Origin: Nitrospirota bacterium
GTDB taxonomy: Bacteria; Nitrospirota; UBA9217
Reading direction: 5' to 3'
NCBI GenBank assembly: GCA_963796285.1
Contig: CAWCKW010000010.1
Coordinates: 1-64,000, forward strand
Length of the DNA: 64,000 nt
The notes under the pieces are model-generated. The model saw only the letters and a program-made list of their open reading frames with translations. It was not told where the DNA came from and ran no database searches. Shown here in pieces: positions 31,465-56,300 of the stretch (the stretch's first letter is position 1; each line of letters starts with the position of its first letter). Both the position numbers and the translations under genes were made by a program.

Positions 31465-32583
31465 ATGAAAAAGCGCTTGATATTCACCCTCATCGGTCTG
31501 GTCATCCTCGTCGTCATTCTCGTCGCCGTCAAGGCCCTGCAGATCGGCGCGATGATCGACCAGGGCAAGAAGTTCGTACCGCCGCCCGAAACCGTGACAT
31601 CCACGCTCGTCAAGGCCGAATCATGGGAGACAGCCCTGACCGCGGTCGGCACGCTGAACGCCGTGCAGGGGGTCACCATAGCCGCCGAGCTGGCGGGCAA
31701 AGTGGCCGGGATCGCGTTCGAGGCGGGCACGCCGGTGAAGAAGGGGGACATCCTGCTGCGCCAGGACACCTCCTCGGAAGAGGCCCAGCTTCCCGGCGTC
31801 GTTGCCCAGGTGAAACTGGCAAGCACCAATCTCGAGAGGATGAACCAGCTGTTTTCGAAGCAGCTGATCTCACAGGCCGACCGCGATAACGCCGTGGCAA
31901 GCGCGGATCAGGCGCAGTCCCAGGCCGAGAACATTCGGGCCACCATTGCCAAGAAGACGATCCGCGCCCCCTTCAGCGGCCAACTCGGCATCCGCCAGGT
32001 CAACCTTGGCCAGATGCTCCGCGAGGGGGACCCCATCGTCACCCTTCAGGCCCTTGACCCGATCTATGTCGACTTTACCCTTCCGCAGCAGCAACTCCCG
32101 CTGGTGCGTCTGGGTCTGACCGTGCACGTGACCACCGATGCCCTGCCGGGGGATGCGCTGCAGGGGCGGATCACCGCCATAAATCCTCTTGTGGACGCCG
32201 ATACCCGCCAGATCATGGTGCAGGCAACGGTGGCCAACCGCGGGGAGAAGCTGCGCCCCGGCATGTTCACCAACGTGGCGGTGGGGCTCCCCGCACGGCA
32301 GAAGGTGCTCGCCATTCCTGCTACGGCCGTCCTTTACGCCCCCTATGGGGACTCGGTCTTCATTGTCGAGGATGCTGCGGATAAAAAAGGAAAGGTGCTG
32401 CGCCAGCAGTTCGTGCGCCTGGGTGTCAAGCGGGGCGATTTTGTCGCCGTCACGAGCGGTATCAAGGAGGGAGAAACGGTGGTCAGCACCGGCGTCTTTA
32501 AACTGCGCAACGGCCAGTCGGCAGTGATAGACAACAAGCTGGCCCCCGACTTCCAGAAAGCGCCCAAGCCGGAGAACAACTGA
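31465..32583 (+). CDS. RND efflux membrane fusion protein
   Basis: N-terminal TM, VKKGDILL, TIRAPFSGQLG, LRPGMF, GIKEGETVV. Confidence 0.93.
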   Translation: MKKRLIFTLIGLVILVVILVAVKALQIGAMIDQGKKFVPPPETVTSTLVKAESWETALTAVGTLNAVQGVTIAAELAGKVAGIAFEAGTPVKKGDILLRQDTSSEEAQLPGVVAQVKLASTNLERMNQLFSKQLISQADRDNAVASADQAQSQAENIRATIAKKTIRAPFSGQLGIRQVNLGQMLREGDPIVTLQALDPIYVDFTLPQQQLPLVRLGLTVHVTTDALPGDALQGRITAINPLVDADTRQIMVQATVANRGEKLRPGMFTNVAVGLPARQKVLAIPATAVLYAPYGDSVFIVEDAADKKGKVLRQQFVRLGVKRGDFVAVTSGIKEGETVVSTGVFKLRNGQSAVIDNKLAPDFQKAPKPENN

Positions 32584-32606
32584 CCTTTGATGCAGGACAA
32601 AATCCA

Positions 32607-32713
32607 TTTTCACCACAGAGAGCACAGAGGGTAGCGAGAACGTCAAAAGAGTTTTTTTTGGTTAATCCTTACTCGCTTTCACACGGGTTTCCTCCGTGTC
32701 CACTGTGGTAAAA
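32607..32713. repeat. REP-like palindromic intergenic element
   Basis: TTTTCACCACAGAG...CACTGTGGTAAAA with CACAGAG units. Confidence 0.6.
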
Positions 32714-32723
32714 TCTGAATTTT

Positions 32724-35700
32724 ATGAAAATCACCGACCTCTTCATACGCCGCCCTGTTCTGGCCCTGGTGGTCAACCTGGTCATCATCATCGCCGGCCT
32801 GCAGGCGGTCCACACCCTCAACGTGCGCCAGTTCCCGCACAGCGAGAACGCCGCCGTCACCGTCACCACCATCTACGTCGGCGCTGATTCCGCCCTGGTG
32901 CGCGGCTTCGTCACGACGCCGCTGGAGCGCGCCATCGCTGCCGCGGACGGCATCGACTACATGGAATCGCAGAGCAGCCTCGGCCTTTCCACAATCAGGG
33001 TGCGCCTCAAGATCAACTACGACTCCACCAAGGCCCTGGCCGAGATCAGTTCCAAGGTCGACCAGGTGCGCCGCGACCTGCCTCCCGAGGCCGAAGTGCC
33101 GGTGATCAACATCGAGTCGGCCGACAGCCAGTTCGCCTCGGCCTATCTGAGCTTCACTTCCGACATCCTGAAGCAGAACGAGATCACCGACTACCTGGTG
33201 CGCGTCGTCCAGCCGCGACTGTCGGCCATCACCGGCGTGCAGCGGGCCGATATCCTCGGCGCCCGCACCTTTGCCATGCGGATCTGGCTCAAGCCCGAAC
33301 GGATGGCCGCCCTCAATATCAGCCCGGCCCAGGTGCGCCAGGCCCTGGCCGCGAACAACTTCCTGGCCGCCCTCGGCAGGAGCAAGGGGTCGCTCATCCA
33401 GGTCAACCTGACCGCCAATACCAACCTGCGCACCATGGACGAGTTCAAGAGCCTGGCGGTGAGAGAACAGAACGGCGCCATCGTGCGCCTGGGGGATATC
33501 GCCGACGTGGTCCTGGGCGCCGAGGACTACGACGCTGAGGTGCACTTCTCGGGGCAGACCGCCGTCTTCATGGGGATCTGGCCCCTCCCCAACGCCAACT
33601 CCATCGACGTCATCAGGCGCGTAACCACGGAGATGGCGGCGATCCAGAAAGACCTTCCGGGAGGTTTGCAGGCGCGCGTGGCCTATGACGCCACCAACTA
33701 CATCAATAACGCGATCCGCGAGGTGCTCAAGACCCTCGGCGATACGCTGCTGATCGTTGTGATCGTCATCTTCCTCTTCCTCGGCTCCTTCCGTTCGGTG
33801 GTTGTTCCGGTGGTGGCGATCCCGGTGTCGCTCATCGGCGGCGTTTTCCTGATGCAGGCCTTCGGCTTCACCGTCAACCTGCTCACCCTGCTGGCGATCG
33901 TTCTCTCGGTCGGTCTCGTGGTGGACGACGCCATCGTGGTGGTGGAGAACGTGGCGCGCCACATGGGCCTCGGGAAGTCCGCCCGCGAAGCGGCCCTGAT
34001 CGGCGCGCGCGAGCTGGTCGGGCCGATCATCGCCATGACCATCACCCTGGCGGCGGTCTACCTCCCCATCGGCCTGCAGGGAGGTCTCACCGGATCGCTC
34101 TTCCGCGAATTCGCCTTCACCCTTGCAGGGGCAGTCACCATCTCGGGGATCGTCGCCCTCACCCTCTCGCCGGTCATGTCGGCCATGTTGCTCAAGCCCG
34201 CCTCAGGGCACGGCCTGGCAGGCCGGATCACCCGCGACTTTGAGCGCCTCAAGGGTGTCTACGGTCGCCTGCTCGACGCCACCCTCCACGCCCGCCCGGC
34301 GGTCTATACGGTATGGATCGTAGTGAGCCTGCTCACCATACCTATGTTCACCATGGCCGCCAAGGAGCTTGCGCCCATGGAGGACCAGGGGGTCATCTTC
34401 GGCATCCTCGATGCCTCGGCCAATTCCACCCTCGACCAGACCAGTCGTTACGCCGCGGCGGCCAACAAGGCCTTCATGAGCGTGCCCGAGACCGCGTTTA
34501 CCTTTCAGGTCACCTTTCCCAACTCAGGTTTCCTCGGCATGGTGACCAAGCCTTGGGCCGAGCGCAAACGCACCGTGTCCCAGATTTTGCCCGAGGTGCA
34601 GAAGAAGCTCCAGGCGATCCCCGGCATCCAGATGTTCCCGGTCGCCCCGCCCGCCCTTCCTGGCGGCGGCCAGTTCCCGGTCGAGTTCATCCTGGCCTCC
34701 ACGGCCGAGACCGGGCAAATTCTCGAGTTTGCCCAAAAGCTGCAGCAGAAGGCGATGCAGAGCGGCATGTTCGCCTTCCCGCCGCTGATCGATGTCAAGA
34801 TCGACCAGCCGCAGACCGAGTTCGTCATCGATCGAGACAAGGTGGCCGCCCTCGGTCTCAGCCTGGGGCAGGTCGGCGCCGACCTGGGGGGCATGGTGGG
34901 CGGCGATTTCGTCAACCGCTTCGACATAGCAGGGCGGAGCTATAAGGTCATTCCCCAGATCCAGCGAATTGATCGCCTCAATCCGGACCAGTTGAAGAAT
35001 ATTAATGTCACCGGTCCCAACGGCAAGCTGGTGCCGCTTTCCACCGTCGCAACCCTCAGGGAGTCCGTGGTCCCCCGTTCGCTCAACCGCTTCCAGCAGC
35101 TCAACGCGGTCAAGATCAGCGGCGTGGCAATGCGGCCGCTGGACGAAGCCCTGCGTTTCCTGGAGGGCGAGGCGACGAAGATCCTCCCGAAGGGGTATGT
35201 CCTCGACTACACCGGCGAGTCGCGCCAGCTGCGCACCGAGGGGAACAAGTTCCTTCCCGCCTTCGGCCTTGCCATTGTCCTGATCTTCCTCGTGCTGGCT
35301 GCCCAGTTCAACAGCTTCCGCGACCCCTTCGTCATACTCGCCGGCTCGGTGCCGCTGGCGATCTTCGGCGCGCTCATTTTCATCTTCCTGAAGATTCCCG
35401 ACCCGAACACGCCGTTCTGGACCCACGGCTGGACCACCACGCTCAACATTTACTCTCAGGTCGGCCTGGTGACACTGGTAGGTCTCGTTGCGAAAAACGG
35501 CATCCTGATCGTCGAGTTCGCCAACAAGCTCCAGCTGCAGGGCCATAGCAAGCTCGATGCGGTACGCGAAGCGGCCATGACCCGCCTGCGGCCCATCCTG
35601 ATGACCACCGCCGCAACCATCGCCGGTCACTTTCCGCTGACCCTCGTCTCCGGCGCCGGCGCCGCTGCCCGTAACTCCATTGGTCTTGTCCTGGTGGGGG

Positions 35701-35816
35701 GCTTGTCCGTCGGCACAGTCTTCACCCTCTTCGTCGTCCCTTCCATCTATATGCTCATTGCCCGCGACCATAGCAAGGACCGCGAGCGCGAATCAGCCTT
35801 GCCGTCTGAGACCTGA
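32724..35816 (+). CDS. RND efflux permease (HAE1/AcrB family)
   Basis: FIRRPVLA, GLVVDDAIVVVEN, FREFAFTLA, KNGILIVEFA, RLRPILMT. Confidence 0.95.
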   Translation: MKITDLFIRRPVLALVVNLVIIIAGLQAVHTLNVRQFPHSENAAVTVTTIYVGADSALVRGFVTTPLERAIAAADGIDYMESQSSLGLSTIRVRLKINYDSTKALAEISSKVDQVRRDLPPEAEVPVINIESADSQFASAYLSFTSDILKQNEITDYLVRVVQPRLSAITGVQRADILGARTFAMRIWLKPERMAALNISPAQVRQALAANNFLAALGRSKGSLIQVNLTANTNLRTMDEFKSLAVREQNGAIVRLGDIADVVLGAEDYDAEVHFSGQTAVFMGIWPLPNANSIDVIRRVTTEMAAIQKDLPGGLQARVAYDATNYINNAIREVLKTLGDTLLIVVIVIFLFLGSFRSVVVPVVAIPVSLIGGVFLMQAFGFTVNLLTLLAIVLSVGLVVDDAIVVVENVARHMGLGKSAREAALIGARELVGPIIAMTITLAAVYLPIGLQGGLTGSLFREFAFTLAGAVTISGIVALTLSPVMSAMLLKPASGHGLAGRITRDFERLKGVYGRLLDATLHARPAVYTVWIVVSLLTIPMFTMAAKELAPMEDQGVIFGILDASANSTLDQTSRYAAAANKAFMSVPETAFTFQVTFPNSGFLGMVTKPWAERKRTVSQILPEVQKKLQAIPGIQMFPVAPPALPGGGQFPVEFILASTAETGQILEFAQKLQQKAMQSGMFAFPPLIDVKIDQPQTEFVIDRDKVAALGLSLGQVGADLGGMVGGDFVNRFDIAGRSYKVIPQIQRIDRLNPDQLKNINVTGPNGKLVPLSTVATLRESVVPRSLNRFQQLNAVKISGVAMRPLDEALRFLEGEATKILPKGYVLDYTGESRQLRTEGNKFLPAFGLAIVLIFLVLAAQFNSFRDPFVILAGSVPLAIFGALIFIFLKIPDPNTPFWTHGWTTTLNIYSQVGLVTLVGLVAKNGILIVEFANKLQLQGHSKLDAVREAAMTRLRPILMTTAATIAGHFPLTLVSGAGAAARNSIGLVLVGGLSVGTVFTLFVVPSIYMLIARDHSKDRERESALPSET

Positions 35817-36061
35817 CCGGACAAACTGAAACCGATTAAGCCAGCCTGCTCCGCGTCTCTCACAAACGGTACGACGTGATGTATACCTCTCTCCTCGAAA
35901 TATCCGCTGATCACCACACAAGACTCTCGATCCTCCACAGGGCCAGTCCTGGCAATGTTCAGGCGTTCTCATAATTGATGGGTAGTCAATCCGCAGGGCC
36001 TCGCAAAAGCCGCGACGGGCGCTGCGCCTATTACGCATGCCTTGTCTGAGTGCGGTCAAAA

Positions 36062-36793: not shown

Positions 36794-37615
36794 ATGATCA
36801 CTCTGGAGAATATAAGCGTAACCTACCCCGGCGGGATCAAGGCGCTGCTCCCCACCTCGGTTAGGTTCAAGCAGGGGCAATTCACTGTGCTGCTGGGACC
36901 GTCGGGTGCGGGAAAGTCCACGTTGCTCCGGAGCATCAATTACCTCTGCAGGCCGACGACCGGGATGATATTCGTCGATGGTCTCGGTCCGCTGGCCGAT
37001 GGCAAGATACTGCGCGAGTCCCGGCGGCGGACAGGAATGATATTTCAGCATCATCAACTCCTTGGCAGGTTGACTGCCCTCAGCAATGTAATCATCGGTC
37101 GTTTGGGCTACCATTCGACATTGCGCAGCCTCCTGCCCCTTCCGCATTGTGAACTCGTTATCGGTCTGGAAAGCCTCGACCGTGTCGGACTGCTACACAA
37201 GGCATTGGAGCGGGCCGACGCATTGAGCGGCGGCGAACAACAGCGGGTCGGCATAGCGCGGGCGCTTGCCCAACACCCAAAGCTCATCCTCGCCGATGAG
37301 CCCGTGGCAAGCCTGGACCCCGCAACGTCCGCAATGGTGCTGTCCCTTCTCTATTCGGTATGCGAGCAGGAGAACATTACGGCCATCGTCAGCCTGCACC
37401 AGGTGGAACTGGCCCGGACCTTTGCCGACCGGGTTCTCGGCGTTTCGCGAGGAAAGATCGTGTTCGACGGCGGTCCGGAGGATCTGACGCCGGACGCGCT
37501 GTCCGTAATCTACAACACACCAATACCACAGAACGAGAACGCATACTGCGTTGGAGCAGCGGAACGCGCTGCGTCCGATCAGGCGCCGGTCTCAATGGCA
37601 TTCACTACACTCTAA
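36794..37615 (+). CDS. ptxA: Phosphite ABC transporter ATPase (PhnC family)
   Basis: [54 protein letters not shown]. Confidence 0.9.
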
Positions 37616-38497
<882 letters not shown>

Positions 38498-38505
38498 TGG
38501 TAATC

Positions 38506-39315
38506 ATGTCGACCAGCGTCGAACACCAGTTCAGCCAGGTCATCGCGGCTCAGCGGCGGTCCTGGCAACGCACCCTGACGCTCGGCGCGGCAGTCACGGC
38601 CGTAATCGTACTTTGCTCATGGTTCGTCGGGCTTTTTGACGCTCGTCGGCTGATGGAAGGCGTACCCAGCATCTTGGGCCTGATGCGGGAGGGGTTTCCA
38701 CCGAACTTCAGGGATGCGGGAACATGGATCAAACCCCTTTTCGATACAGTAGCCATGAGCATCGGCGGCACTGCGCTCGCCGTCCTGCTGTCTTTTCCCC
38801 TTGCCCTGTGCGCGGCGTCCAATACATCGCCGCACCCGCTCGTTTACTCTGCGGCGCGAGGTGTGCTGAACCTGCTCCGTTCCATTCCGGAGTTGATCAT
38901 GGGCATAGTGTTCGTTGCCGCGGTCGGCTTCGGCGCTTTGCCCGGCGTCCTCGCGCTGGGGCTGCATTCGATCGGAATGGTCGGCAAATTCTATGCCGAG
39001 GCGATCGAGCTCGTCAATAAGGAGCCGGTGGAAGCGGTGCGCGCTGCGGGCGCGAGAAAGCTTCAAGTAATCTTCCACGGCATCCTGCCCCAGGTGCTTC
39101 CCCAGATGGCCGACGTATCCATTTACCGCTGGGAATATAACTTTCGTGCCTCGACCGTCATGGGCATGGTCGGTGCGGGCGGCATCGGCTTCGAGCTGAT
39201 GGCGTCACTCAGGATCATGCAGTACCAGGATGTTTCAGCAATCCTGCTCGTCATCCTGCTGATGGTCACACTCGTAGACCGCCTTGGTTCTGCATTGCGA
39301 AGGAAGTTCAAATAA
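38506..39315 (+). CDS. ptxC: Phosphite ABC permease (PhnE family)
   Basis: [43 protein letters not shown]. Confidence 0.9.
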
Positions 39316-39337
39316 TTTTGAACGGAGAAAAAAGAGC

Positions 39338-40399
39338 ATGAGACCAAAAGTAGTTATCACCGAATGGGTACACCCCGAAGTCATCGAACGTTTACAAAGG
39401 GAGTGCGACGTTGTTCCCAACGATACACGGGATACGCTGTCGCGTGAGGAGCTTTTACATCGCGCTTCGAATGCACAGGCCATCATGGCATTCATGACCG
39501 ACCGCATTGATAATGACTTTCTCTCCTTATGTCCCGAACTGAAGGTTATAAGCGCCGCGCTCAAGGGCTATGACAATTTCGACGTAGATGCCTGCACCAG
39601 GAGAGGAATCTGGTTCACCATCGTCCCCGACCTTCTCACCATCCCCACAGCAGAACTGGCGATCGGCCTCCTCATTGGCCTCGGCCGTCATGTACTCGAG
39701 GGTGACCGTTTCATAAGGAGCTGCGCGTTCAAGGGCTGGCGGCCGCAACTGTACGGAACGGGCCTCGCGGGCCGGACGCTCGGTATCATCGGGATGGGTG
39801 CAGTAGGACAGGCGGTCGCCCAACGCCTGGCCGGGTTCGGTATGCGCGCTTTGACCTACAATGATCCGGTTCGGCTTCCCCTGGAGACCGAGGAGGCGTT
39901 GCGGCTGTCGCCGACGTCCTTCGAGGAAGTGATGGCGACGAGCGACTTCGTCCTCCCGCTCACACCCCTGACTCCTGCGACCAGGCATCTTATCGGCCGA
40001 CAGGAGATCGCCATGATGATGCGAGGAAGCTATTTGGTGAACGTGTGCCGCGGTTCCGTCGTGGACGAGCAGGCGGTTGCTGAGGCGCTCGCCGACGGCC
40101 ATTTAGCAGGGTATGCCGCCGATGCCTTCGAGCTGGAGGACTGGGCTCTCGACGACCGTCCCCGCATAATCGCACCCGCACTCCTTACCGACGACTCTCA
40201 CACCCTGTTCACTCCGCATATCGGATCCGCAGTCGACGACGTCCGGCGCGAGATCGCTATGCAAGCAGCACAGAATATACTCCAGGCGATGAACGGTGAA
40301 ACGCCGGCGGGTGCGTTGAATGATCCGATGGTGACTACAGGCAAAGGCCTCCCCGGCCTTTACAAGAGCATTGGAGCGGCCTGTTCTCGCTCACGATAG
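39338..40399 (+). CDS. ptxD: NAD-dependent phosphite dehydrogenase
   Basis: [74 protein letters not shown] (catalytic R/E/H present). Confidence 0.93.
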
Positions 40400-42322: not shown

Positions 42323-43231
42323 TCAGTCCTTTTGGTAGTCCGGAGTGAGCGCATCGTGCGCCACTGTTGTTGCTTCGTGCTGCCGTGTTTCATATCCCTC
42401 TAAGTAAATGTCGAATAAACCGAATTTCTCCCTCAGCATGTTCTTCATCAGCCTGATGGTTTCACGGCCATTTCCCGATCCGTTCGTCCTGATCCTTGCA
42501 ACGAGGATCACCTTCTCCGGTGAAAGACCCCAGATATGCATATCCTTTACATGATGTATTTCAGGGAACGATCGCTGCAGAAAGCTGGAAACTTCGTCGA
42601 CATCGATCCTGGCAGGACTCCCCTCCATCAGGATCTTAACGCTGTCCCTGATCAAGAAAAAGGTCGGATAGGCAGCCAGGCAGCCGATCAGGATGCCGGC
42701 AAGGGGGTCCACAACATAAAGGTGGGTATATCGTATGATGATGGCGGAACCGATGACACCGACCGAGCCCAGGGTATCGTTCAGGATCAGGAGCAGGGCC
42801 CCTTTTATGTTCACGTCCTTTGAATACCTATACAGTTGAACGAGACCGAAGAGGTTCGCGAAGAGGCCCAGAACGGCAATGACGAGGACTTTATCCGCTT
42901 CAATGGGTTGCGGGTGCAGGATCTTCTGGAAGGCTTCCGTGAAAACATAGAACAGGATGAAGCCAACGAGCATCCCGTTGAACAGGCCGGACAGCACTTT
43001 CGCGCGCTCGTACCCGAAGGTATTGACCTTGTCCGGCTGTCTGCGGGCCAGCCTGGTCACCCAGAGCGCGATGATCTGCCCCGAGATATTGACGGCCATG
43101 AACGACGCGTCGGTCACGAGGGCGATGCTGTGATAATAGAGCCCCCCGAACAATTCTACGAAGAAATAGGCGATTGTTACGACAAGAACGAGCGTCTGGC
43201 CTGTTACGTGCTTTTCCTCAGTTTCATGCAT
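42323..43231 (-). CDS. Cation diffusion facilitator (CzcD/ZitB-like) with atypical metal site
   Basis: FFVELFGG...SIALVTDASFMAVN, TFGYERAKVL, NIKGALLLILNDTLGS, LMEGSP, DMHIW. Confidence 0.88.
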   Translation of the reverse strand: MHETEEKHVTGQTLVLVVTIAYFFVELFGGLYYHSIALVTDASFMAVNISGQIIALWVTRLARRQPDKVNTFGYERAKVLSGLFNGMLVGFILFYVFTEAFQKILHPQPIEADKVLVIAVLGLFANLFGLVQLYRYSKDVNIKGALLLILNDTLGSVGVIGSAIIIRYTHLYVVDPLAGILIGCLAAYPTFFLIRDSVKILMEGSPARIDVDEVSSFLQRSFPEIHHVKDMHIWGLSPEKVILVARIRTNGSGNGRETIRLMKNMLREKFGLFDIYLEGYETRQHEATTVAHDALTPDYQKD

Positions 43232-43259: not shown

Positions 43260-44459
43260 TCACCCTTTCAGGAGAACCGCCTTGTCAGTCAATTCCCATG
43301 GCAGGCCGATATCCATTCTTCCTACATGACCGTACGCTGCGAGCTTGCGATAAAAACCGCCCTTGATCTGAGAGGGGAGGTATCGGAGGTTGAACTGGCG
43401 TATGATCCCCGCTGTTCGAAAGTCGAAATTTTTCTCAACGAGATCTGCTATTTTTTGATCAGATTCTTTCCCGGTCCCGAAGGTTTCCACCTGGATGCTC
43501 ACCGGCCGCGAAAATCCGATGGAATAACTGAGCTGAACTTCGCAAGAGGTTGCAAGTCCGGCTGCGACGACATTCTTTGCAGCATACCGGGCGGCATAGG
43601 CGCCGATCCGGTCGATCCTCGAAGGGTCTTTCCCGCTCAAGGCTGCCCCGCTGTGGCGGGAATACTCGCCGTAGGTATCGATTGCGTTCTTTCTCCCGGT
43701 CAACCCTGAGTGCATGGCAGGACCGCCGCCGATGAAGGGACCGTCGGGATTGACGAAGATCCGGGTGTGCACATCCGGTTTGATCTCCTCGTCCTGAAAA
43801 ACAGGATTCAGCACCATCTCCCGAATATCGTCCTGGAGCCGTTTGGCATCGGGCCCGCCTTTGCCGTCGGCCCGTTTCTGGCTTGCAATAATGGTGATGC
43901 TGTGAACACGCGACGGTGTGCCGTCACGGTATTCGATGCCGACCTGGGTCTTGCCGTCGGGCGCAAGATAGTCGAGCGTTTTCTGGAGCCGTACGGAAGT
44001 GAGCTTCCGGGCAAGACGATGAGCAAGCCAGATCGGAAGTGGCATGAAGGACGCCGTTTGATCACATGCGAAACCGAACACGGTGACCTGGTTCTTGACC
44101 GGGACGCGCTCGATCTCTTCATCGGACATGGCACGCTCATCAACAGGACGACGTTCTTCCTGTGGGAATTCCTTCAAGCTCGTCACAATGCTGCAGGTCT
44201 TCGCGTTGAAGGCATGCTGGTCGTAACCGACCTGGCTTATCACCTGTCGCGCTACATTTGCAAAGTCCATATGAGCAACAGCTGCGAACCTCGCAGCAAT
44301 AAATACGATCGCCGTGGAAACGGCGCATTCGGCAATGACCTTCGCATAGGGGTCTTTTTGGAGGTAATGATCGACAACGGCATCGCTGATGATATCGCAG
44401 AGCTTGTCAGGATGGCCTTCGGTCACCGATTCAGAGGTGAACATGAAATCTTTTTTCAT
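43260..44459 (-). CDS. Divergent MetK (SAM synthetase)-family protein lacking methionine-binding motifs
   Basis: FTSESVTEGHPDK, PDGKTQV, GLTGRK..DTYG, SGKDPS.IDR, AAYGH present; GAGDQG replaced by PVKNQV. Confidence 0.85.
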   Translation of the reverse strand: MKKDFMFTSESVTEGHPDKLCDIISDAVVDHYLQKDPYAKVIAECAVSTAIVFIAARFAAVAHMDFANVARQVISQVGYDQHAFNAKTCSIVTSLKEFPQEERRPVDERAMSDEEIERVPVKNQVTVFGFACDQTASFMPLPIWLAHRLARKLTSVRLQKTLDYLAPDGKTQVGIEYRDGTPSRVHSITIIASQKRADGKGGPDAKRLQDDIREMVLNPVFQDEEIKPDVHTRIFVNPDGPFIGGGPAMHSGLTGRKNAIDTYGEYSRHSGAALSGKDPSRIDRIGAYAARYAAKNVVAAGLATSCEVQLSYSIGFSRPVSIQVETFGTGKESDQKIADLVEKNFDFRTAGIIRQFNLRYLPSQIKGGFYRKLAAYGHVGRMDIGLPWELTDKAVLLKG

Positions 44460-44486
44460 TTGACCCTCTCTATGAACTATGCATGC

Positions 44487-47400
44487 TCAAGTAACTGCAA
44501 AAACTTGATTGCCGTTCAATACCGGAACCGGGGCCGTTGAACTGCCATTCAGCACCAACGATGGAGCAGAGATCCTCTTCGTCGCTTCGTTAATGAGCAG
44601 GGGAGCGACAGCGGTCCCGATCGAAATTGCCAGGTCGAGGGGATTCAGCGGGCTCATCCCGAGGAAACTCCGGAGGCCCGGGACGACCAGGGTTAGCGAT
44701 TGCAATCCCAGCGAGCCTGTCAGGGCAACGGTGAGATAGTTGTTTGGCGCGAGCCGCGCAGCGTCAAAGATACTGTGGGTCTCGGAACGGTGGCTGATGG
44801 CGTGCAGGAGCCCTGCCGTGACAAAGTTCGTGAAAGCCATCGTGCTGGCTTGGGGCCCCTGCCCGTAGCGCAGGACTCCGTAGCCGTAGGCCGTCAGCGT
44901 CCCCGCCGAGATGGTGGAAGCCTCGAAGAGGAGCCTTTTAAAGTCTGCCGTATTGATGAGCTGTTCCTGGGGATTGCGGGGAGGCCGCAGGAGCACATCC
45001 GGCTCGGGCGGTTCCTGGGCAAGGGCAAGGCCAGGGAAGATGTCCGAGATCATGTTGATCCAGAGAAGCTGCATGACGTTGAACGGTTGTCCCATGCCGG
45101 CGGCAAGAGCGGTGAACATGATCATGATCTCGCTCGTGTTCTTCGAAAGCATGTACCGGACAGATTTTCGCAAATTGTTGTAGATCGTCCGCCCCTGGCT
45201 GATGGCCACGACCATTGTCTCGAGGTTGTCATCTTCCAGGATCACGTCTGCTACCTCCCGCGCCACGTCAGTCCCCGTGTGTCCCAGAGCGATCCCGATG
45301 TCGGCCGCCTTGAGCGCAGGTCCGTCGTTGATGCCGTCGCCGGTCATGCCAATGACCTTTCCTGCTGCCTGGAGCGCCTGGACGATCTGAAGCTTGTTGG
45401 CCGGGCTCACCCGGGCGAAGACATGGATCCGCCCGGCAAGTGCCGTCATGACCTCGGGTTCAAGCTGTGATAGATTGGTCGAGTCCAGGATCTCCAGTTC
45501 CTCGCCCTTGCTCAGATTGAGCTCCTTGCCGATGGCATACGCCGTGGGGCTCTGGTCCCCGGTGATCATAACGGTATCGATCCCGGCACGGTGGAACGTG
45601 TTGATGAGATTCTTGACGCCGCTCCTGACCACATCCGCCATGCCGACGAGTCCGACCCAGACGAGTCCCTGCTGGATGATCTCATCGCTGCGCAGGGTAT
45701 CTCCGTTGGTCACGGCATAGGCTACGGCCAGCACGCGGAGCGCTTCACCGGCCATCCGTTCATTTTCTGCATCGAAGACCGCGCGGGTATCGTTGTCCAT
45801 CACCAGTTGCCGGCCGTCCTTGACGTACCATTTGCAGACTGACAGCACATCGGACGGGCTGCCCTTGAGAGCCATAAGCCGCTGCCGGTCATTCGAACTA
45901 TGCACGGTGCTCATAAACTGCCGGTCTTCCGATCGGTAGTTCAGCTTCACGATGGGGTGCTGGGTCCGAAGCGAGTTGACATCCACGCCGGCGCTGAGCG
46001 CAAGGTTCACGAGGGCGTTTTCCGTCGATGAACCCTCGACGAGATAATCTCCTTCCAGTCCCGATACTATCGATTCATTACACAGCACTGACAGATGGAG
46101 CAGACGGAGGACGTCCTCGCTCGTATAGGGATTTATGCTTTTTCCTTCCGCCATGATCCTGCCATTAACAACATCGAGACGGCGCATGCCTGCATGGATC
46201 TGGACCACCGACATCTTGTTCATGGTGATGGTGCCGGTCTTGTCAAGACAGATGGTCTCGACCGAGCCGAGCGTTTCGACGGCGTCAAGGTGACGGATGA
46301 GCACATTCAGACCCCGCATGCGCTTGATGCCGAGCGCGAGGGTCGTCGTCGCAACGGTCGGAAGCCCCTCGGGCACAGCGGCTACAGCAAGGGCAATGGA
46401 GGTCTTCAGCATCTGGAGAAAACCGTAACCACGCAGAATGCCTACGATGAACACGATGCCGCATACAGTGCAGGTGATATACACCAACTGGACCCCCAGG
46501 TGGTCCATCTGCCGTTCCAAGGGCGTGTCGGGCGGCCGCGCTTCTCCCACCATGGTCTGGATCTTCCCGACCTCGGTAAAGCGACCTGTCGCCACCGCGA
46601 CGGCGCGTCCCTGTCCTCCCGTAACCAGGGTGCCCATATAGACCATGTTGGTCCGGTCGCCAAGGGGAATGTCCGATACCTTCAGTTCATCGGTGGTTTT
46701 TATCGCCGGCATGCTCTCGCCCGTCAACGCCGACTCATCGATACTCAGATATTTTGCCTCTATGAGACGGGCGTCCGCCGCGACATAGCTTCCCGGTCTT
46801 AGCACGAGCAGATCGCCGGGCACGACCTCTTTGGCATCGATGGTCGTCATGACCCCGCCGCGGATCACGGTTGAGGTCGGCTGCACGAGGTTCTTCAACC
46901 CGTGGATGATCTTTTCCGACTGGCTTTCGGTGACATACCCGATGGAGGAGTTGGTGACGACGACTCCCATGATCACGACAGCATCGGCGAGCCCGCCTGT
47001 AGCAACGGAAATGCCGGCAGCAACGCAGAGGAGAGCTACAGGAAGGGACTTGAACTGATCGAAAAAGATGCTCCAGCCTGAGCGAGGAACGGATTCAGGC
47101 AGAATGTTGGGACCATATTGGATGTACAAAAGGCGGGCTGCTTCTTCGGATAAACCGTTTGACGCTGATGTGCCCCATCGCTGCAAGACATCCTTCTTCG
47201 CCACACAGTGCCAAGGTTCTGCCTGCTGGTCCTCTGCATTGGCAACCTGTTTGCGAACAGTCCGCAGGCTCGGCACTTCCTTGCCAGCGGGAGTGTGGGG
47301 AGGAGAGACGGCGGTGCGCACGGGGCGTACCATCACCGTCCCTTTCCCCTGCGGCGTATCAGGGGCACGGCGTTCCTTACCCCCGACCGGGTCTCCGTTG

Positions 47401-47633
47401 GTACGCTCGACCACGGACTGCAGGAGGGAGGCCACTGCTGATGAATGATTGCCGTTCTGCGAATCGAACAGCACGAGAACGCTTCCCGTGAGGGTGTTAA
47501 TCGAAACGCTCAGGATCCACGTGTGCTGCGCAAGATTCTGCTCGATCTGCTTTTTCAGGGACTCCGAGCGATACAGGCCCTCTACTTTATAACGGGCCCG
47601 TCCTTTTACCGATGTATGAACGGCCTGGACCAC
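44487..47633 (-). CDS. P2A-type (SERCA-like) cation P-type ATPase with N-terminal HMA2 domain
   Basis: HTSVKGRARYK..NTLTGSVLV; LTGES, AVPEGL, DKTGT, MITGD, GDGINDGPALK, SKNTSE, QLLWINMISD. Confidence 0.92.
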   Translation of the reverse strand: MVQAVHTSVKGRARYKVEGLYRSESLKKQIEQNLAQHTWILSVSINTLTGSVLVLFDSQNGNHSSAVASLLQSVVERTNGDPVGGKERRAPDTPQGKGTVMVRPVRTAVSPPHTPAGKEVPSLRTVRKQVANAEDQQAEPWHCVAKKDVLQRWGTSASNGLSEEAARLLYIQYGPNILPESVPRSGWSIFFDQFKSLPVALLCVAAGISVATGGLADAVVIMGVVVTNSSIGYVTESQSEKIIHGLKNLVQPTSTVIRGGVMTTIDAKEVVPGDLLVLRPGSYVAADARLIEAKYLSIDESALTGESMPAIKTTDELKVSDIPLGDRTNMVYMGTLVTGGQGRAVAVATGRFTEVGKIQTMVGEARPPDTPLERQMDHLGVQLVYITCTVCGIVFIVGILRGYGFLQMLKTSIALAVAAVPEGLPTVATTTLALGIKRMRGLNVLIRHLDAVETLGSVETICLDKTGTITMNKMSVVQIHAGMRRLDVVNGRIMAEGKSINPYTSEDVLRLLHLSVLCNESIVSGLEGDYLVEGSSTENALVNLALSAGVDVNSLRTQHPIVKLNYRSEDRQFMSTVHSSNDRQRLMALKGSPSDVLSVCKWYVKDGRQLVMDNDTRAVFDAENERMAGEALRVLAVAYAVTNGDTLRSDEIIQQGLVWVGLVGMADVVRSGVKNLINTFHRAGIDTVMITGDQSPTAYAIGKELNLSKGEELEILDSTNLSQLEPEVMTALAGRIHVFARVSPANKLQIVQALQAAGKVIGMTGDGINDGPALKAADIGIALGHTGTDVAREVADVILEDDNLETMVVAISQGRTIYNNLRKSVRYMLSKNTSEIMIMFTALAAGMGQPFNVMQLLWINMISDIFPGLALAQEPPEPDVLLRPPRNPQEQLINTADFKRLLFEASTISAGTLTAYGYGVLRYGQGPQASTMAFTNFVTAGLLHAISHRSETHSIFDAARLAPNNYLTVALTGSLGLQSLTLVVPGLRSFLGMSPLNPLDLAISIGTAVAPLLINEATKRISAPSLVLNGSSTAPVPVLNGNQVFAVT

Positions 47634-47688: not shown

Positions 47689-48414
47689 TTAAGCCTGTTT
47701 CGACTTCGGGAGGGCACTGCCCGCTACTTCCTTCACACCTTCAACAACGCCGACAAGCATGTCCTTTACCGCCTTGACTGCCGTGTTGCCGATCAAAGCC
47801 GCCGCATCAATCGCGCCAGTGACTGCAACCTTTGCCACTTCCTCGGCATTCCCCCCGACCTCCTTCGTTGCCTCGATCACGCCATCTACGGCCCTGCGGG
47901 CAACCATGGCAACATCAGCGCCGACCTCGGCAGCACCCTTGACAGCGCCGCTGACGGTCTGTCCTGCCACGGAAATAACATCGCCGCCAACATCGCTTAC
48001 GCCCATGATCACCCCTTTTGCCACGCTCTTGGTGCTCAAGATGAGTCCGGTGCCGACCTCTTCAGTGGCCTGAATGGCCCCCTTGACTACATCCTTCGTG
48101 ATACCGACAGCTTCATCGGCCACTGCGCCTGTTGCACGAAGCGTGTTGGATACGATGTTCCTGACGAGGCTGACGATCTCCGCTTCGATCTCGTTGATCC
48201 CCTTGAGACTGCTCACGACACCCTCTCTCACTGCAGATCCTGCTTTGCCGATGTCCCGGGCTGACGTTTCACTACCTATGGACTTTGCGTTTGTCATGTC
48301 TGCTCCTTTAGTTGTTGTCCTAGTTGTAATCTTCTGATCCGATCCCGATGATGTGCCGTGCGGACCGCGCTTCACTGTCTTCTTCGCTGGTGCCTTTTGT
48401 TTGCTGTCACTCAT
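47689..48414 (-). CDS. Hypothetical protein with 11/22-residue amphipathic helical repeats
   Basis: RBS AAGGAGG; KGAIQATEEVG, KGVIMGVSDVG, SGAVKGAAEVG, DGVIEATKEVG, TGAIDAAALIG at 22-aa period. Confidence 0.8.
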   Translation of the reverse strand: MSDSKQKAPAKKTVKRGPHGTSSGSDQKITTRTTTKGADMTNAKSIGSETSARDIGKAGSAVREGVVSSLKGINEIEAEIVSLVRNIVSNTLRATGAVADEAVGITKDVVKGAIQATEEVGTGLILSTKSVAKGVIMGVSDVGGDVISVAGQTVSGAVKGAAEVGADVAMVARRAVDGVIEATKEVGGNAEEVAKVAVTGAIDAAALIGNTAVKAVKDMLVGVVEGVKEVAGSALPKSKQA

Positions 48415-48592
48415 AATATCCTCCTTGCCAAGGTTCACAAAAACTTATCGTATCTTCTTGTATCCTGGATATTTTGATAATTCCGGGAATGGATATCTTG
48501 GGAATGCCGAATTGTCTGCTACTCGAATTTTTCGTAGCTGACAAGGCGGAAAGGAACTGGAAGAGTTCCCGCTTATCTAAGAGCTGCTTATG

Positions 48593-50676: not shown

Positions 50677-51117
50677 ATGACCAAACCAAAGGCGTTATTC
50701 CTTTGTACAGGGAACTCAGCCCGCAGCCAAATGGCTGAAGCATTTCTCAGAAAATATGCTGGGGAGAAGTATGAAGTTCACAGTGCAGGTTTGGAGCCAA
50801 AAAGAATTAATCCTTATACAATTCGTGTAATGGAGGAAGTTGGCGTCAGTTTGAATGGTTATAAATCAAAAAGTGTGAAAGAATATATGGGGAAGGTACA
50901 TGTCGCATATTTTTTCACCGTCTGCGATCAAGCTGAAAAAAACTGTCCGCGAACTTTTCTGATGAGCGTAGGGCGACACGTCCGTTGGGGGTTTGAAGAC
51001 CCCGCAGCATTTGAGGGAACAGATGAGGAAAAGCTATCAAAATTCCGGGAAGTTCGAGACCAGATTGACCAAAAAATCATAGAGTGGTTAGGAGAACAAG
51101 GCGTTACTGTTCCCTGA
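50677..51117 (+). CDS. arsC: Arsenate reductase, LMW-PTP/thioredoxin-coupled type
   Basis: LFLCTGNSARSQMAE, SAGLEP, TVCDQAEKNCP, WGFEDPA, FREVRDQI. Confidence 0.9.
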   Translation: MTKPKALFLCTGNSARSQMAEAFLRKYAGEKYEVHSAGLEPKRINPYTIRVMEEVGVSLNGYKSKSVKEYMGKVHVAYFFTVCDQAEKNCPRTFLMSVGRHVRWGFEDPAAFEGTDEEKLSKFREVRDQIDQKIIEWLGEQGVTVP

Positions 51118-52729: not shown

Positions 52730-52789
52730 TCGAACCAGATATAAAGAGACCATAATAAAAGAGGCATTATCTCATCTTTGGAGGACCCA

Positions 52790-53671
52790 ATGAAACAGCT
52801 CATGGCAGGTATTGTTCTATTTGCAGTTCTCGCACTCAGTTCGAACGCCGGTGCGCAGGAGTCCAAGATCTTCGACGGGATAATCCGCATCGGCGGTTCG
52901 ACGACCCTGCTTCCCGTAATTGCGGACAGCGCCAGCCAATTCATGGAGAAGTTCGAGACATGGGACAAAGTCGACTCCGCGCTTCCCAAGGTGCCGATCC
53001 TGATTTACGTGACAGGCGGCGGCTCAGGGTTCGGCGTAAAAGCGGTCACGGACGGCACGGTCATGATCGGGATGGCATCGAGGGACATCAAGGAGAAAGA
53101 AAAGGCCGCACTCGGGCAGCATAAAGAATATCTGATCAGCAAGGACTGCGTCGCCTTCGCCGTGAACAAAAAGAATCCTCTTGCGAAAATCGAAAATCTC
53201 ACCCGCGAGGATGTCGTCCGGATCTTTTCCGGTGAAGCCGCTACGTTCAAGGATATCAAGGCAACTCTTCCCAATAAGCCGATTCTCGTGCAGATGCGCG
53301 ATGCTGCTGGCGGGTCCACGGAAGTCCTCCAGAAGGAGGTCCTGAAAAACAAGACTTTCACACAAAAGGCGATCCAGGTGCCGTCTCAGGGCGCAAACCT
53401 TAAAAAACTACAGACAAATACCAGCGTCATCGGCTATATATCGTCGGTGCTCGCACTCCAGAGCCCCGAGCTCAAAGTTTTTCGGTTCGAGGGCGTTGCC
53501 CCCACGAACGAGAATGTCATAAACGGCAAATACTCGCTGACGCGTCCGCTCCTGCTTCTGGTGAAAGGAGATCCCGAGCCCGCCGTTGAAAAGTTCATCA
53601 CGTTCATGCTCAATGAAGGTCAAAAAACCGTTGAAGAGCACGGCTACGTTCCGGTAAAAGCTGTCCAATGA
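52790..53671 (+). CDS. pstS: PstS-family substrate-binding protein
   Basis: Signal peptide; IGGSTT, GGGSGFG, GMASR, IGYIS, YSLTRPL. Confidence 0.82.
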   Translation: MKQLMAGIVLFAVLALSSNAGAQESKIFDGIIRIGGSTTLLPVIADSASQFMEKFETWDKVDSALPKVPILIYVTGGGSGFGVKAVTDGTVMIGMASRDIKEKEKAALGQHKEYLISKDCVAFAVNKKNPLAKIENLTREDVVRIFSGEAATFKDIKATLPNKPILVQMRDAAGGSTEVLQKEVLKNKTFTQKAIQVPSQGANLKKLQTNTSVIGYISSVLALQSPELKVFRFEGVAPTNENVINGKYSLTRPLLLLVKGDPEPAVEKFITFMLNEGQKTVEEHGYVPVKAVQ

Positions 53672-54573
53672 TACAGTTCAGTATTCCGCAGCATCGTTTT
53701 ACGAGCGACGGTCTAGTCCGTTTCGCCAGCTTAGCGGCGCTCTGCTCCGGAATTTTTCTGCTCCTGCTCATCATTGCCTTTGTGCTCCGCGAGTCATCAG
53801 TCTTTTCCGGATTCGGTTTGAACATGCTCGATTTCCTCGTGCGGGACCCCTGGGCGCCGCTTGCCACGCCGCCTACCTACGGCATCTTCCATGCGTGGCT
53901 GTCGACGCTCATTGTCGCAGGAATGAGTCTGGCTGTCGCAGTCCCCTTGGGTCTCGGCATCGGCCTCTTCATCGCTGAGCTCGCGCCCCGGCCGCTGCAG
54001 CAACTCATGCAGCCTGCGCTTGAACTCCTTGCAGGCATTCCCGCGGTCGTCTACGGGTTTTTTGGCTATGTCATGCTGGTCCAAAATTTTGAAACGTGGT
54101 TTGCAATGCCGGCAGGAGAATGCCTGCTCATTGCGGGTCTTATCCTCGCCGTGATGGTCCTCCCGTTTATCGCGAGCACCGCGGCCGAATCCTTCCGAAG
54201 TGTGTCCCGGGAACTGAAAGAAACGGCATATGGTTTCGGCGTCACCAGGCTGTATGTCATTCGCAGGATAGTCATGCGCAAGGCGTTGCCGGGCCTGTTC
54301 GCGGCCGTGGCCCTCGGTCTGGCAAGGGCACTGGGAGAGACACTCGCTGTTCTCATGCTTACGGGAAATTCTTCGGCCAGCCCCGGTTCCCTCCTGGACC
54401 GCGGCCAGCCGATTACGGCGCTCCTTGCAACGGAACTCGGCGAGACGGCCAGCCAGTCGCAAAAATACAAAGCCCTATTCGCGTCAGGTTTTTTTCTCAT
54501 GCTCGTTGTCCTGGCAATCAATATGGCGGTTTGGTTCCTGAGAAAACGGGCCTTGGAGCACTCCCATGCATGA
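53668..54573 (+). CDS. pstC: PstC-family permease
   Basis: ELLAGIPAVVYGFFG, MVLPFI, RALGETLAV. Confidence 0.85.
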   Translation: MIQFSIPQHRFTSDGLVRFASLAALCSGIFLLLLIIAFVLRESSVFSGFGLNMLDFLVRDPWAPLATPPTYGIFHAWLSTLIVAGMSLAVAVPLGLGIGLFIAELAPRPLQQLMQPALELLAGIPAVVYGFFGYVMLVQNFETWFAMPAGECLLIAGLILAVMVLPFIASTAAESFRSVSRELKETAYGFGVTRLYVIRRIVMRKALPGLFAAVALGLARALGETLAVLMLTGNSSASPGSLLDRGQPITALLATELGETASQSQKYKALFASGFFLMLVVLAINMAVWFLRKRALEHSHA

Positions 54574-55477
54574 CATAAGCATACCCTGCCTGCTCGCCGC
54601 AGACCCTGCTGATGCACGCGTCAGACTCGCTTCGTACCGGCGTTCGGTTTTCGTTGATCAGCTATTTCATATTATTTTGTGGGTTTGCGGTCTTCTCGGC
54701 GTCCTTCTCCCGGTATTTATCATCGGCTACCTGCTGATTCACGGAAGCCACAGCCTGTCGTGGACATTCCTTTTCGACCATCCGCGAGGCGCGCCGCTCG
54801 GGACTGCGGGAGGCATAGGGCCGGCTATACAGGGTTCTCTTGCCCTCGCGTTATGCGGGCTTCTCATGGCGTTTCCGCTCTCGCTCGCGGGAGGCGTCTA
54901 CCTTTCGGAGTATGGACGTTCCCGGGTTTTTAACGATTCAGCGCGTTTCATCGTCGAATGCCTGGCGGCAGTTCCTTCGGTCATTTACGGGCTTTTCGGG
55001 TACGCTTTCCTGGTCGTTTTTCTTAAGTTCGGCATTTCTCTTTTCGCGGGAAGCATTGTCCTGGCGCTCATCATGTTCCCGATCATGCTTATTTCCATTC
55101 AGGAAGCGTTCAGGGCAGTTGATCCGGGGTACCGGGAGACAGCGCTCTCCCTGGGCGTTACCCGCTGGTACCTCGTGCGGAAGATACTTCTGCCGAAGGC
55201 ATGGCCGGGCATCGTTGCCGGAGTAGTTTTGGCCGTAGGCCATGCCGTGGGCTCCGCCGCGCCGGTGCTCTTTACCGCGAGCGTCTACTTCTCCAAGGGA
55301 GGCTTGAAACTTGAACAGCCCGTGATGACGCTGCCCACGCATCTCTATCATCTCGTATCGGAAGCAATCTCCTTCGACCAGGCCTACGGCACGGCACTCG
55401 TCCTCATTATCGGATTGCTGCTCTTTAACATGAGCGCCCTGCTTATACGTAAAATAGGGGGCGCTGCATCCACGTGA
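54566..55477 (+). CDS. pstA: PstA-family permease
   Basis: GGIGPAIQGS, YLSEY, LAAVPSVIYGLFG, ALSLGVTRW. Confidence 0.85.
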   Translation: MHDISIPCLLAADPADARVRLASYRRSVFVDQLFHIILWVCGLLGVLLPVFIIGYLLIHGSHSLSWTFLFDHPRGAPLGTAGGIGPAIQGSLALALCGLLMAFPLSLAGGVYLSEYGRSRVFNDSARFIVECLAAVPSVIYGLFGYAFLVVFLKFGISLFAGSIVLALIMFPIMLISIQEAFRAVDPGYRETALSLGVTRWYLVRKILLPKAWPGIVAGVVLAVGHAVGSAAPVLFTASVYFSKGGLKLEQPVMTLPTHLYHLVSEAISFDQAYGTALVLIIGLLLFNMSALLIRKIGGAAST

Positions 55478-56300
55478 CCATACAAACGGAAATTCTCCAT
55501 GCGATCGCGTCTTCCGACGGTATCGCGCCGCCGGCCTTGCATCCTGCGGTTATTTTTGAAGTCAGGAAGCTGTGTGTTTCCTTCAACGGCCGCACTGTCC
55601 TGAACGACGTAAGCACGGCCGCGCTGGACCGCCAGGTGCTGGCCGTTATCGGCCCTTCGGGTTCCGGAAAGTCACGCTTTTACGCGCAATGAACCGGACG
55701 CTGGAACTTGTCCCGGATGCCCGCGTTATTTCGGGAACAGTTCATTTCAAAAACAATAACCTCTATGAACGCGATATCGATGCCAGAATCATTCGGAAGC
55801 GCATCTGCATGGTTCATCAGAAACCCGCACCCTTTCCAATGTCGATCCGGGAAAACGTGCTGTTTGGAGTACGTTTTCATAAGAACTGGAACGGCCGCGG
55901 CAAGGATGAAATCGTCCGGACCTGCCTCGAACGGACAGGCCTCTGGAGCGAAACAAAGGACAGGCTGAGCGAGCCGGCCTCCCGCCTGTCGGTCGGGCAG
56001 CTGCAGCGGCTGTGTATCACCCGCGCCCTGGCCAACGATCCCGAAGCGCTCCTGATGGACGAACCCTGTTCGGCGCTGGACCCGGTCTCAACAGGCAGGA
56101 TCGAAGAACTGATTCTCACTCTGAAGCGCCATCTTCCGGTCATCATCGTCACCCATAACCTGGCGCAGGCGCGCCGCATCGCGGACCGCTGTCTTTTTCT
56201 CTACAGCGGTTTCTCCCTGGAACAGGGAACGACCGAAAAAGTATTTCTGGAACCGGAAAGCAACCTGGTCCGTGATTTTGTAACGGGAAGGACAGGATAA
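55474..56300 (+). CDS. pstB: PstB-family ATPase (frameshift near 55672)
   Basis: IGPSGSGKS then TLLRAMNR, QKPAPFPMSI, LSVGQLQRLCI, LMDEPCSALDP, VTHNLAQA. Confidence 0.85.

Follow-up and report, generated by a model that had tools for sequence, protein, structure and literature searches.

MetK, the S-adenosylmethionine (SAM) synthetase, ranks with the best-conserved enzymes, and its annotation is taken to be reliable. The stretch of Nitrospirota DNA analysed here (64,000 nucleotides, hereafter the window) raises the question of what a MetK homolog does once its methionine site has been replaced, since the open reading frame (ORF) under study encodes a full-length MetK-like protein with other residues at its methionine contacts. 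We conclude, with a probability of roughly 0.85, that this protein is a repurposed paralog that does not make SAM and is functionally tied to a P-type ATPase, the pump encoded directly upstream. The MetK-like gene and the gene of this P2A-type pump, which is headed by a CoBaHMA domain, are passed on together and keep a fixed arrangement, within an island of CoBaHMA and DUF5132 genes (Table 1).

The frame of the MetK-like ORF is intact, with an ATG start and no internal stop, and its product matched all three S-AdoMet_synt Pfam domains (PF00438, 3.2e-33; PF02772, 1.2e-34; PF02773, 1e-55). Against TIGR01034, the NCBIfam metK model, it scored 376.3 bits, above the cut-off of 309.4 and far below the 604.8 bits of the canonical MetK of the same genome; of five other variants tested, two missed this cut-off, one with 290.7 bits and one, on a cut contig, with 286.9 bits. 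A search of solved structures matched 45 distinct methionine adenosyltransferase (MAT) sequences (top match 7r3b_A, 7e-96), with 40–44% identity to the solved MATs listed. The AlphaFold2 model, made with a 65-row alignment, had a predicted local distance difference test score of 93.2 and a predicted template modelling score of 0.92, and agreed with the solved MATs listed at TM-scores of 0.85–0.91, normalised by query length. Relatives of the ORF are labelled S-adenosylmethionine synthetase or methionine adenosyltransferase in databases (NCBI, JGI).

We then aligned the ORF, the genome's canonical MetK and three distant relatives with E. coli metK as reference, and use mature E. coli numbering throughout unless the protein's own residues are named (Arg57, His250, Arg281). 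The substitutions in the ORF were E55R (GGEI to AARF), Q98F (KQSPDI to EFPQEE), GAGDQG to PVKNQV, T227D, R229P (GRF to GPF), D238H (GGPMGDCG to GGPAMHSG) and K269R (PSKVDR to PSRIDR), and HMMER alignments to two solved MATs gave the same changes. H14, D16, K17, E42, D163, K165, F230, R244, K245, K265 and D271 were unchanged. All of the triphosphate, Mg2+ and K+ ligands (H14, D16, E42, K165, R244, K245, K265 and D271) are present, whereas the methionine contacts E55, Q98, D238 and K269 (human E70, Q113, D258 and K289, mapped through shared motifs) have become R, F, H and R; among the adenine and ribose contacts, F230 is retained, and T227, R229 and D238 are Asp, Pro and His. The roles of individual triphosphate-site residues, K165 included, are in part our assumption, and we likewise take H14 to be the acid catalyst of C5'-O5' cleavage in MetK and Lys289 (K269) to be a contact of the methionine carboxylate.

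These positions have been studied in the human enzyme. In that work, Glu70, Gln113 and Asp258 contact methionine, with the carboxylate bound to Gln113; Asp258 also bonds ribose O3, adenine is bonded by Ser247 and the Arg249 backbone with Phe250 stacked on it, and Lys289 is named among the residues involved in catalysis (PMC6850014). The same work reports that MAT-alpha1 patient mutants, including Arg249Trp, Asp258Gly and Lys289Asn, had significantly lower SAM with phosphatase activity unaffected (PMC6850014), an observation that fits the suggestion, made in an earlier note on this DNA, that a triphosphate function could survive loss of the methionine site. Two of the mutated positions, Asp258 and Lys289, are changed in the MetK-like protein too. 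Unlike the patient mutations, which are single loss-of-function changes in a housekeeping enzyme, the His and Arg replacements are fixed in a whole clade, with further changes alongside. From these residues we infer that the MetK-like protein has probably lost SAM synthesis, and the conservation of its triphosphate site suggests that it may bind or hydrolyse inorganic triphosphate (PPPi) or polyphosphate.

The clade was delimited with two trees. A search of 1.84 billion representative sequences returned 17,688 matches at E <= 0.001, of which the best 150, filtered to 340–470 residues (fragments and long forms were dropped), entered a first tree together with six close relatives and the canonical copy (FastTree, 113 rows). 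One branch with an SH-like support of 98 separated 23 rows (20 scored as His, one as Asn and two unscored) from the other 90. A second tree (IQ-TREE quick mode, LG+G4) split 65 variant rows, 52 of which came from a scan requiring His250 and the neighbouring motif residues so that the set is skewed at those columns, from 28 canonical rows with an SH-aLRT support of 100; the canonical comparison sets were chosen by GAGDQG and the Asp motif, and their 100% figures at these positions hold by construction. Within the variant clade, cyanobacteria, Methylococcaceae and Chromatiaceae form one group each. Some transfer is likely, because the Nitrospirota are interspersed with Thermodesulfobacteriota and one Binatia row.

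Among the 23 members defined by the first tree, which are representatives at 50%-identity clustering, the retained residues were D16 in 22, E42 in 22, D163 in 20 (with Glu in two more), R244 and K245 in all 23, K265 in 22 and D271 in 21. The new residues were similarly conserved: E55 is replaced by Arg in 15 and His in five, D238 by His in 22 and K269 by Arg in 21, position Q98 holds a hydrophobic residue (Leu or Phe), and GAGDQG is missing from 23 of 23. Compared with MetK proper (EC 2.5.1.6; TIGR01034; PF00438, PF02772, PF02773), the clade shares the three-domain fold and the triphosphate, Mg2+ and K+ residues; it differs in having R, F/L, H and R at the methionine contacts and no GAGDQG, in a conserved acidic helix motif that replaces the gating loop (F-D-E-R-x-L-S-D-E-E-I-D-x-I-P, within segment 95–126, of median net charge −4), and in a seven-residue insertion in the C-terminal region (LPxxxKGGF, at 361–369). 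Cys45, Leu274 and Ile282 are further clade-specific features.

Closer to the ORF, the 120 best database clusters were 75–97% identical to it and came from Nitrospirota wherever an organism was given; 118 of them combine the absence of GAGDQG with His at D238 and Arg at K269, and the remaining two could not be scored by the regular expression. The ratio of nonsynonymous to synonymous substitution rates (dN/dS) of the MetK-like gene was 0.137 and 0.134 against two orthologues of about 86% identity. Because the changes are common to the whole clade and dN/dS is about 0.13, they are not chance decay.

The variant coexists with a housekeeping enzyme. The source genome (13 contigs, 3.58 Mb, 96% complete) carries a canonical metK at C12:1042045-1043163, with GAGDQG and GGPMGDTG present, and five of five other carrier genomes checked hold a canonical metK (474–629 bits) beside the variant (287–404 bits), so that the two genes occur together in all six genomes examined, the variant being in each a second copy. 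Among 41 related genomes the variant (76–100% identity) was found in eight, and the others had only proteins of at most 48% identity; an even sample of the phylum gave 42 of 301 genomes, or 32 of the 229 of high quality. A search of one-genome-per-species contigs with the back-translated pattern GGPxxHxGxTGRKxxxDTYG found at least 116 stretches, 80 of which were made into loci. The carriers among these 80 belong to Thermodesulfobacteriota, Nitrospirota, Cyanobacteria (Chlorogloeopsis fritschii PCC 6912, Tolypothrix, Rivularia, Richelia and Crocosphaera), Methylococcaceae, Chromatiaceae, Alpha- and Betaproteobacteria (Aquabacter, Nitrosospira, Thiobacillus), Acidobacteriota, Binatia, Roseiflexus and a Mycobacteriaceae bin, which places the clade in at least seven phyla besides Nitrospirota.

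Named strains among the carriers include Methylococcus capsulatus Texas, Chlorogloeopsis fritschii PCC 6912 and Nitrosospira sp. Nsp14. The orthologue of the cultured M. capsulatus Texas (L088:1448-2638, minus strand) reads GHPDC for GHPDK (K17C) and PDCTTQV for PDGKTQV (K165T); two basic triphosphate residues are gone from this protein. Two variant genes per genome were found in C. fritschii PCC 6912 and also in one further genome (G171). In a plasmid collection, 157 records matched, all below 60% identity and with the top rows annotated metK; no plasmid-borne variant was found there, so nothing connects the variant with the Fischerella megaplasmid that PMC8890360 mentions.

Much of what the earlier note had read from the letters by eye holds up in these analyses. 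Its substitutions (E55R, Q98F, GAGDQG to PVKNQV, R229P, D238H and K269R) all stand in the proper E. coli alignment, as do its retained H14, D16, E42, D163/K165, R244/K245, K265 and D271 and its description of a full-length, intact ORF. K165 needs a qualification: it is kept in this protein but not across the clade, where it is Lys in 12 and Gln in five of the 23 members (Lys in 47 of the 65 rows of the larger set). A clade sharing the substitutions exists with strong support in both trees, a canonical metK is present elsewhere in the genome, the expected automated label of metK is indeed what the TIGR01034 score and the NCBI and JGI names of relatives would give, and the view that the changes were selected rather than decayed agrees with their clade-wide occurrence, the low dN/dS and the conservation of the new residues. 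The separate canonical gene, the monophyly of the variants and purifying selection likewise bear out the proposal of a repurposed MetK paralog in place of a housekeeping enzyme. Absent from the earlier note was the strict coupling to a CoBaHMA-headed P2A-type ATPase.

We investigated this coupling in the loci with at least 600 nt upstream and an intact MetK-like N-terminus (64 of the 80; the other 16 are at contig or stretch ends). In 64 of 64, the C-terminus of an orthologous ATPase was encoded upstream of the MetK-like gene in the same orientation, at a distance of 0–293 nt (median 39 nt). Similarly, of the 41 related genomes, exactly the eight variant carriers had an ATPase that was at least 61% identical, aligned from residue 2 and lay at adjacent coordinates, whereas the ATPase matches listed for the 33 non-carriers reached at most 40% identity, started at query residue 90 or later and were without the N-terminal domain. 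In C. fritschii PCC 6912 each of the two MetK-like copies lies downstream of its own ATPase copy (L149, L150). The match to the ATPase in L149 falls into two parts, with the break at about 5469/5474, and the MetK-like gene follows after a gap of about 645 nt.

Two metatranscriptome runs contained contigs of a 90–99% similar strain over the MetK-like gene and the pump, and one RNA-library contig of 556 nt bridges the ATPase/MetK-like junction (44279-44834). This is weak evidence of expression, as a contig is not a single transcript and DNA carry-over is possible; stretches lacking coverage and values of depth carry no meaning in these runs. Rfam at gathering thresholds gave zero riboswitches or other RNA families in the whole window, and therefore no ligand clue from a leader.

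The partner ATPase combines E1-E2, Hydrolase, Cation_ATPase, Cation_ATPase_N and Cation_ATPase_C domains with an N-terminal HMA_2 domain. Its closest solved structures were SPCA1 (512 bits) and Listeria LMCA1 (478 bits), and its best NCBIfam model was the PMR1-type Ca2+-ATPase (621 bits, cut-off 798). As in the P2A Ca2+-ATPases SPCA1, LMCA1 and SERCA, it has PEGLP in transmembrane helix 4 (TM4), Asn and Glu in TM5, and Asn and Asp in TM6, which match in an alignment with SERCA2 and which we take to be Ca2+ ligands. Unlike these pumps, it carries an extra N-terminal CoBaHMA domain followed by a variable linker, has an obligate MetK-like neighbour, and shows Gly at the position of the SERCA TM8 Glu. 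The CoBaHMA signature H..GR.R..V..L was seen by eye in the first 100 residues of 40 of 40 full-length partner ATPases, and in a 41-row ATPase alignment R12, R14 and L20 were invariant and H6 nearly so. Pfam HMA_2 (PF19991) corresponds to the CoBaHMA domain, which the literature describes as defined on calcyanin, the marker of intracellular amorphous calcium carbonate, and for which it proposes an anionic partner.

How the MetK-like protein would serve the pump is less certain than the probable tie itself. The composite that we favour, a neofunctionalised MetK that makes no SAM, binds a triphosphate-type ligand and works with the pump, is tentative and falls slightly short of an even chance. 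According to it, the protein would be a cytosolic triphosphate-site protein that binds, with Mg2+ and K+, an anionic phosphate ligand such as PPPi, short polyphosphate or a nucleotide triphosphate, and probably hydrolyses it. The former methionine pocket, now cationic (Arg57, His250, Arg281), would take a further anionic group. In its work with the pump the protein may hydrolyse or hold PPPi or short polyphosphate, or it may regulate in response to a ligand; it would then be a regulator or accessory enzyme of a system that exports or sequesters a divalent cation, probably Ca2+.

Several points weigh against this picture. K165 varies across the clade, and K17 is also missing from the M. capsulatus protein; because these residues are not conserved, catalysis at the triphosphate site is perhaps altered or lost in some lineages. 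The kept H14 and D163 would be equally expected if ATP were still cleaved at C5'. As for ion identity, Ca2+ is a tentative assignment; the ATPase misses the equivalog cut-off of each NCBIfam model, and Gly occupies the place of the SERCA TM8 Glu. Finally, the partnership with the pump is read from gene pairing, and physical contact between the two is a proposal.

The kept catalytic residues make room for a different reading, which we consider unlikely: the protein may still be an adenosyltransferase, for another, anionic acceptor. ATP would be cleaved at C5' and the nucleophile (an inorganic oxyanion, a thiol or a carboxylate, for example) held by Arg57, His250 and Arg281, with PPPi released and hydrolysed and either the product or PPPi serving the cation system. 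Of the 65 variant rows, 61 retain His14 and 60 retain Asp163, the Phe230 that stacks on adenine is kept in this protein and in 31 of 65 overall, and the replaced pocket residues are conserved, as they would be for a new substrate site. However, GAGDQG is gone, K165 is variable, and so are the equivalents of the adenine contacts Ser247 and Arg249 as well as Phe230 itself (Phe in 8 of the 23 tree-defined members); furthermore, the neighbourhoods examined contain no conserved gene that would process an adenosylated product.

A similarly doubtful alternative is a pseudoenzyme, a non-catalytic subunit that helps to regulate or assemble the ATPase, with or without a phosphate ligand bound; a version in which it forms mixed dimers with canonical MetK is less likely. 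The strict gene pairing with the pump and the loss of K165 and K17 in some lineages agree with such a subunit, and its conserved acidic surface motif (median net charge −4) could face the conserved basic residues of the CoBaHMA domain, but the nearly full set of triphosphate and metal ligands that is conserved would be superfluous for a pure scaffold. Three ORFs that join P-type ATPase and MetK-like domains (P0274, P0275 and P0288; three among 135 matches, with 6771 longer candidates) would also suit it, yet they are truncated singletons that look like deletions or assembly errors. We rejected them as evidence of domain fusion, each being confined to one contig and missing whole domains. A similar partial ATPase/MetK-like ORF lies at L071:739-3390 (minus strand), and the joined ORFs are probably all deletions or assembly errors. 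A complex prediction of two MetK-like chains with ATPase residues 1–80 (the CoBaHMA domain) scored 0.00 against a mark of 0.32; run without controls, it is uninformative either way.

An ordinary second SAM synthetase isozyme with an unusual, working methionine site is very improbable. Such an isozyme would have the MetK fold and pass the TIGR01034 cut-off, as this protein does, but four methionine contacts and the GAGDQG loop are all changed, and canonical metK is never replaced, both genes being present in six of six genomes checked; in human MAT-alpha1, Asp258Gly or Lys289Asn alone is reported to lower SAM significantly (PMC6850014). A decaying, functionless duplicate would explain the loss of canonical motifs and nothing else, and can practically be dismissed given the intact frame, a dN/dS of about 0.13, at least 120 database clusters 75–97% identical and a clade with conserved synteny across many phyla.

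The repurposed paralog and its pump lie within an island whose features are listed in Table 1.

Table 1 Features of the CoBaHMA/DUF5132 island (positions in the window).
Feature	Position	Strand	Remark
Zinc-ribbon protein, 107 aa	40765..41088	plus	Overlaps the start of the 123-aa CoBaHMA gene
CoBaHMA-like protein, 123 aa	41069..41440	plus, divergent	29.7 bits, Pfam cut-off 30
DUF3562 protein, 93 aa	42005..42286	minus	Kept in the Nitrospirota version of the cluster
Cation diffusion facilitator (CDF) transporter	42323..43231	minus	Starts 28 nt after the MetK-like stop
MetK-like paralog, 399 aa	43260..44459	minus	MetK fold; methionine site replaced by Arg57/His250/Arg281; GAGDQG lost
Spacer, ATPase stop to MetK-like start, 27 nt	44460..44486	minus	GAGAGGG (ribosome-binding-like) 6–7 nt before ATG
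P-type ATPase, P2A type (SPCA1/LMCA1/SERCA-like), 1048 aa	44487..47633	minus	Directly upstream partner
N-terminal CoBaHMA (Pfam HMA_2) domain of the ATPase	47448..47633	minus	Profile match
Protein of 249 aa, no family match, Gly/Ala/Val-rich repeats	47689..48438	minus	Upstream of the ATPase
CoBaHMA (HMA_2) protein, 161 aa	48593..49078	minus	Full-profile match
DUF5132 protein, 112 aa	49075..49413	minus	Sole DUF5132 match of the genome

The gene order of the island is maintained in seven related genomes. All three HMA_2 matches of the source genome, as well as its single DUF5132 match, fall inside the island, and neither family was found in 14 control genomes; in other phyla, DUF5132, HMA_2, MgtE and Na_Ca_ex genes accompany the ATPase/MetK-like pair. 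The CDF gene is a lineage-specific addition (2 of 80 loci, and four of seven related Nitrospirota loci), and the zinc-ribbon and 123-residue CoBaHMA-like genes are conserved together in 10 of 80. At 18 of 80 loci the ATPase is preceded by a copy of the 249-residue protein, and these copies are 56–85% identical across phyla. This protein had no match in Pfam and NCBIfam scans; it has a head rich in Lys, Ser and Thr followed by long repeats with regularly spaced acidic and basic residues, and may form a coat or scaffold within the system.

The island recalls a cyanobacterial locus. A preprint on the Microcystis ccyA neighbourhood describes two DUF5132 proteins, two CoBaHMA proteins and a Ca2+/H+ exchanger (bioRxiv 10.1101/2024.07.07.602159). 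Both loci bring small CoBaHMA and DUF5132 membrane proteins together with a Ca2+-type transporter. Calcyanin (ccyA, GlyZip x3), the diagnostic marker, was not seen here, though no search of the source genome was aimed at it. They differ in that the transporter there is a CAX exchanger and here a P2A ATPase with its own CoBaHMA domain, and the text of that preprint mentions neither 'adenosylmethionine' nor 'MetK' (bioRxiv 10.1101/2024.07.07.602159). A literature search, with the CoBaHMA-defining paper and supplements outside its scope, found neither this clade described nor a MetK paralog that is paired with CoBaHMA or a P-type ATPase. Gaschignard et al. (2024; Proteins 92:776) are said to define the CoBaHMA architectures and may already list the CoBaHMA-ATPase architecture.

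These likenesses invite a broader and quite speculative extension, which we regard as improbable: the MetK-like/CoBaHMA-pump pair may be the conserved core of a widespread, so far undescribed bacterial system that sequesters a divalent cation, probably Ca2+, and relies on the MetK-derived enzyme to handle PPPi or pyrophosphate. The cation would be held in or at an intracellular compartment, by parts related to the calcyanin toolkit for amorphous carbonate. The enzyme would form, retain or break down PPPi or pyrophosphate, and this phosphate-anhydride chemistry would be coupled to pump activity or to mineral formation. Inorganic triphosphate and pyrophosphate are strong Ca2+ chelators and inhibitors of mineralisation.

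In the source genome the island is flanked by two phosphorus-uptake operons. On one side (36794-40399, plus strand) lies a phosphonate/phosphite-type ATP-binding cassette (ABC) transporter (PhnC 275.9, TIGR01098 binding protein 264.6 and PhnE 294.4 bits), followed by a D-2-hydroxyacid dehydrogenase of 371 residues that is below all equivalog cut-offs; the layout presumably resembles that of ptxABCD phosphite oxidation. On the other, a gene resembling ArsC or low-molecular-weight phosphatase and scoring under the arsC cut-off (50677-51117, plus) precedes a pstS-pstC-pstA-pstB-like phosphate transporter (52778-56300, plus). Both operons were considered as parts of the system and rejected, as they are not conserved beside the island in the seven related loci. 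Further away, positions 32001-36000 have a G+C content of 0.62, against about 0.50–0.58 around them, and contain an ORF of 1030 residues (32724-35816, plus).

Other unusual MetK proteins appeared in the searches. Four sequences on the canonical side of the tree (P0153, P0162, P0233 and P0242) are without GAGDQG and carry Ser, Lys, Tyr or Phe instead of D238; they may be further independent repurposed MetK lineages. Long MetK proteins of 790–1240 residues with intein/LAGLIDADG domains (PF14890, PF14528), such as P0279, come from Nanoarchaeota or Aenigmarchaeota bins wherever an organism is named, and are unrelated to the MetK-like clade.

Our findings indicate that a large clade named methionine adenosyltransferase in databases is almost certainly not one. 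What appears to be new here is a clade of the MetK superfamily that has both a changed substrate site and a conserved genomic partnership. Several carriers are named strains and not metagenome bins, so the question is open to direct bench work. That the clade pairs, at every testable locus, with a single subfamily of Ca2+-ATPase-like pumps provides a concrete, testable functional link, and one that covers an orphan MetK paralog, the CoBaHMA domain and a pump subfamily without a curated equivalog match.

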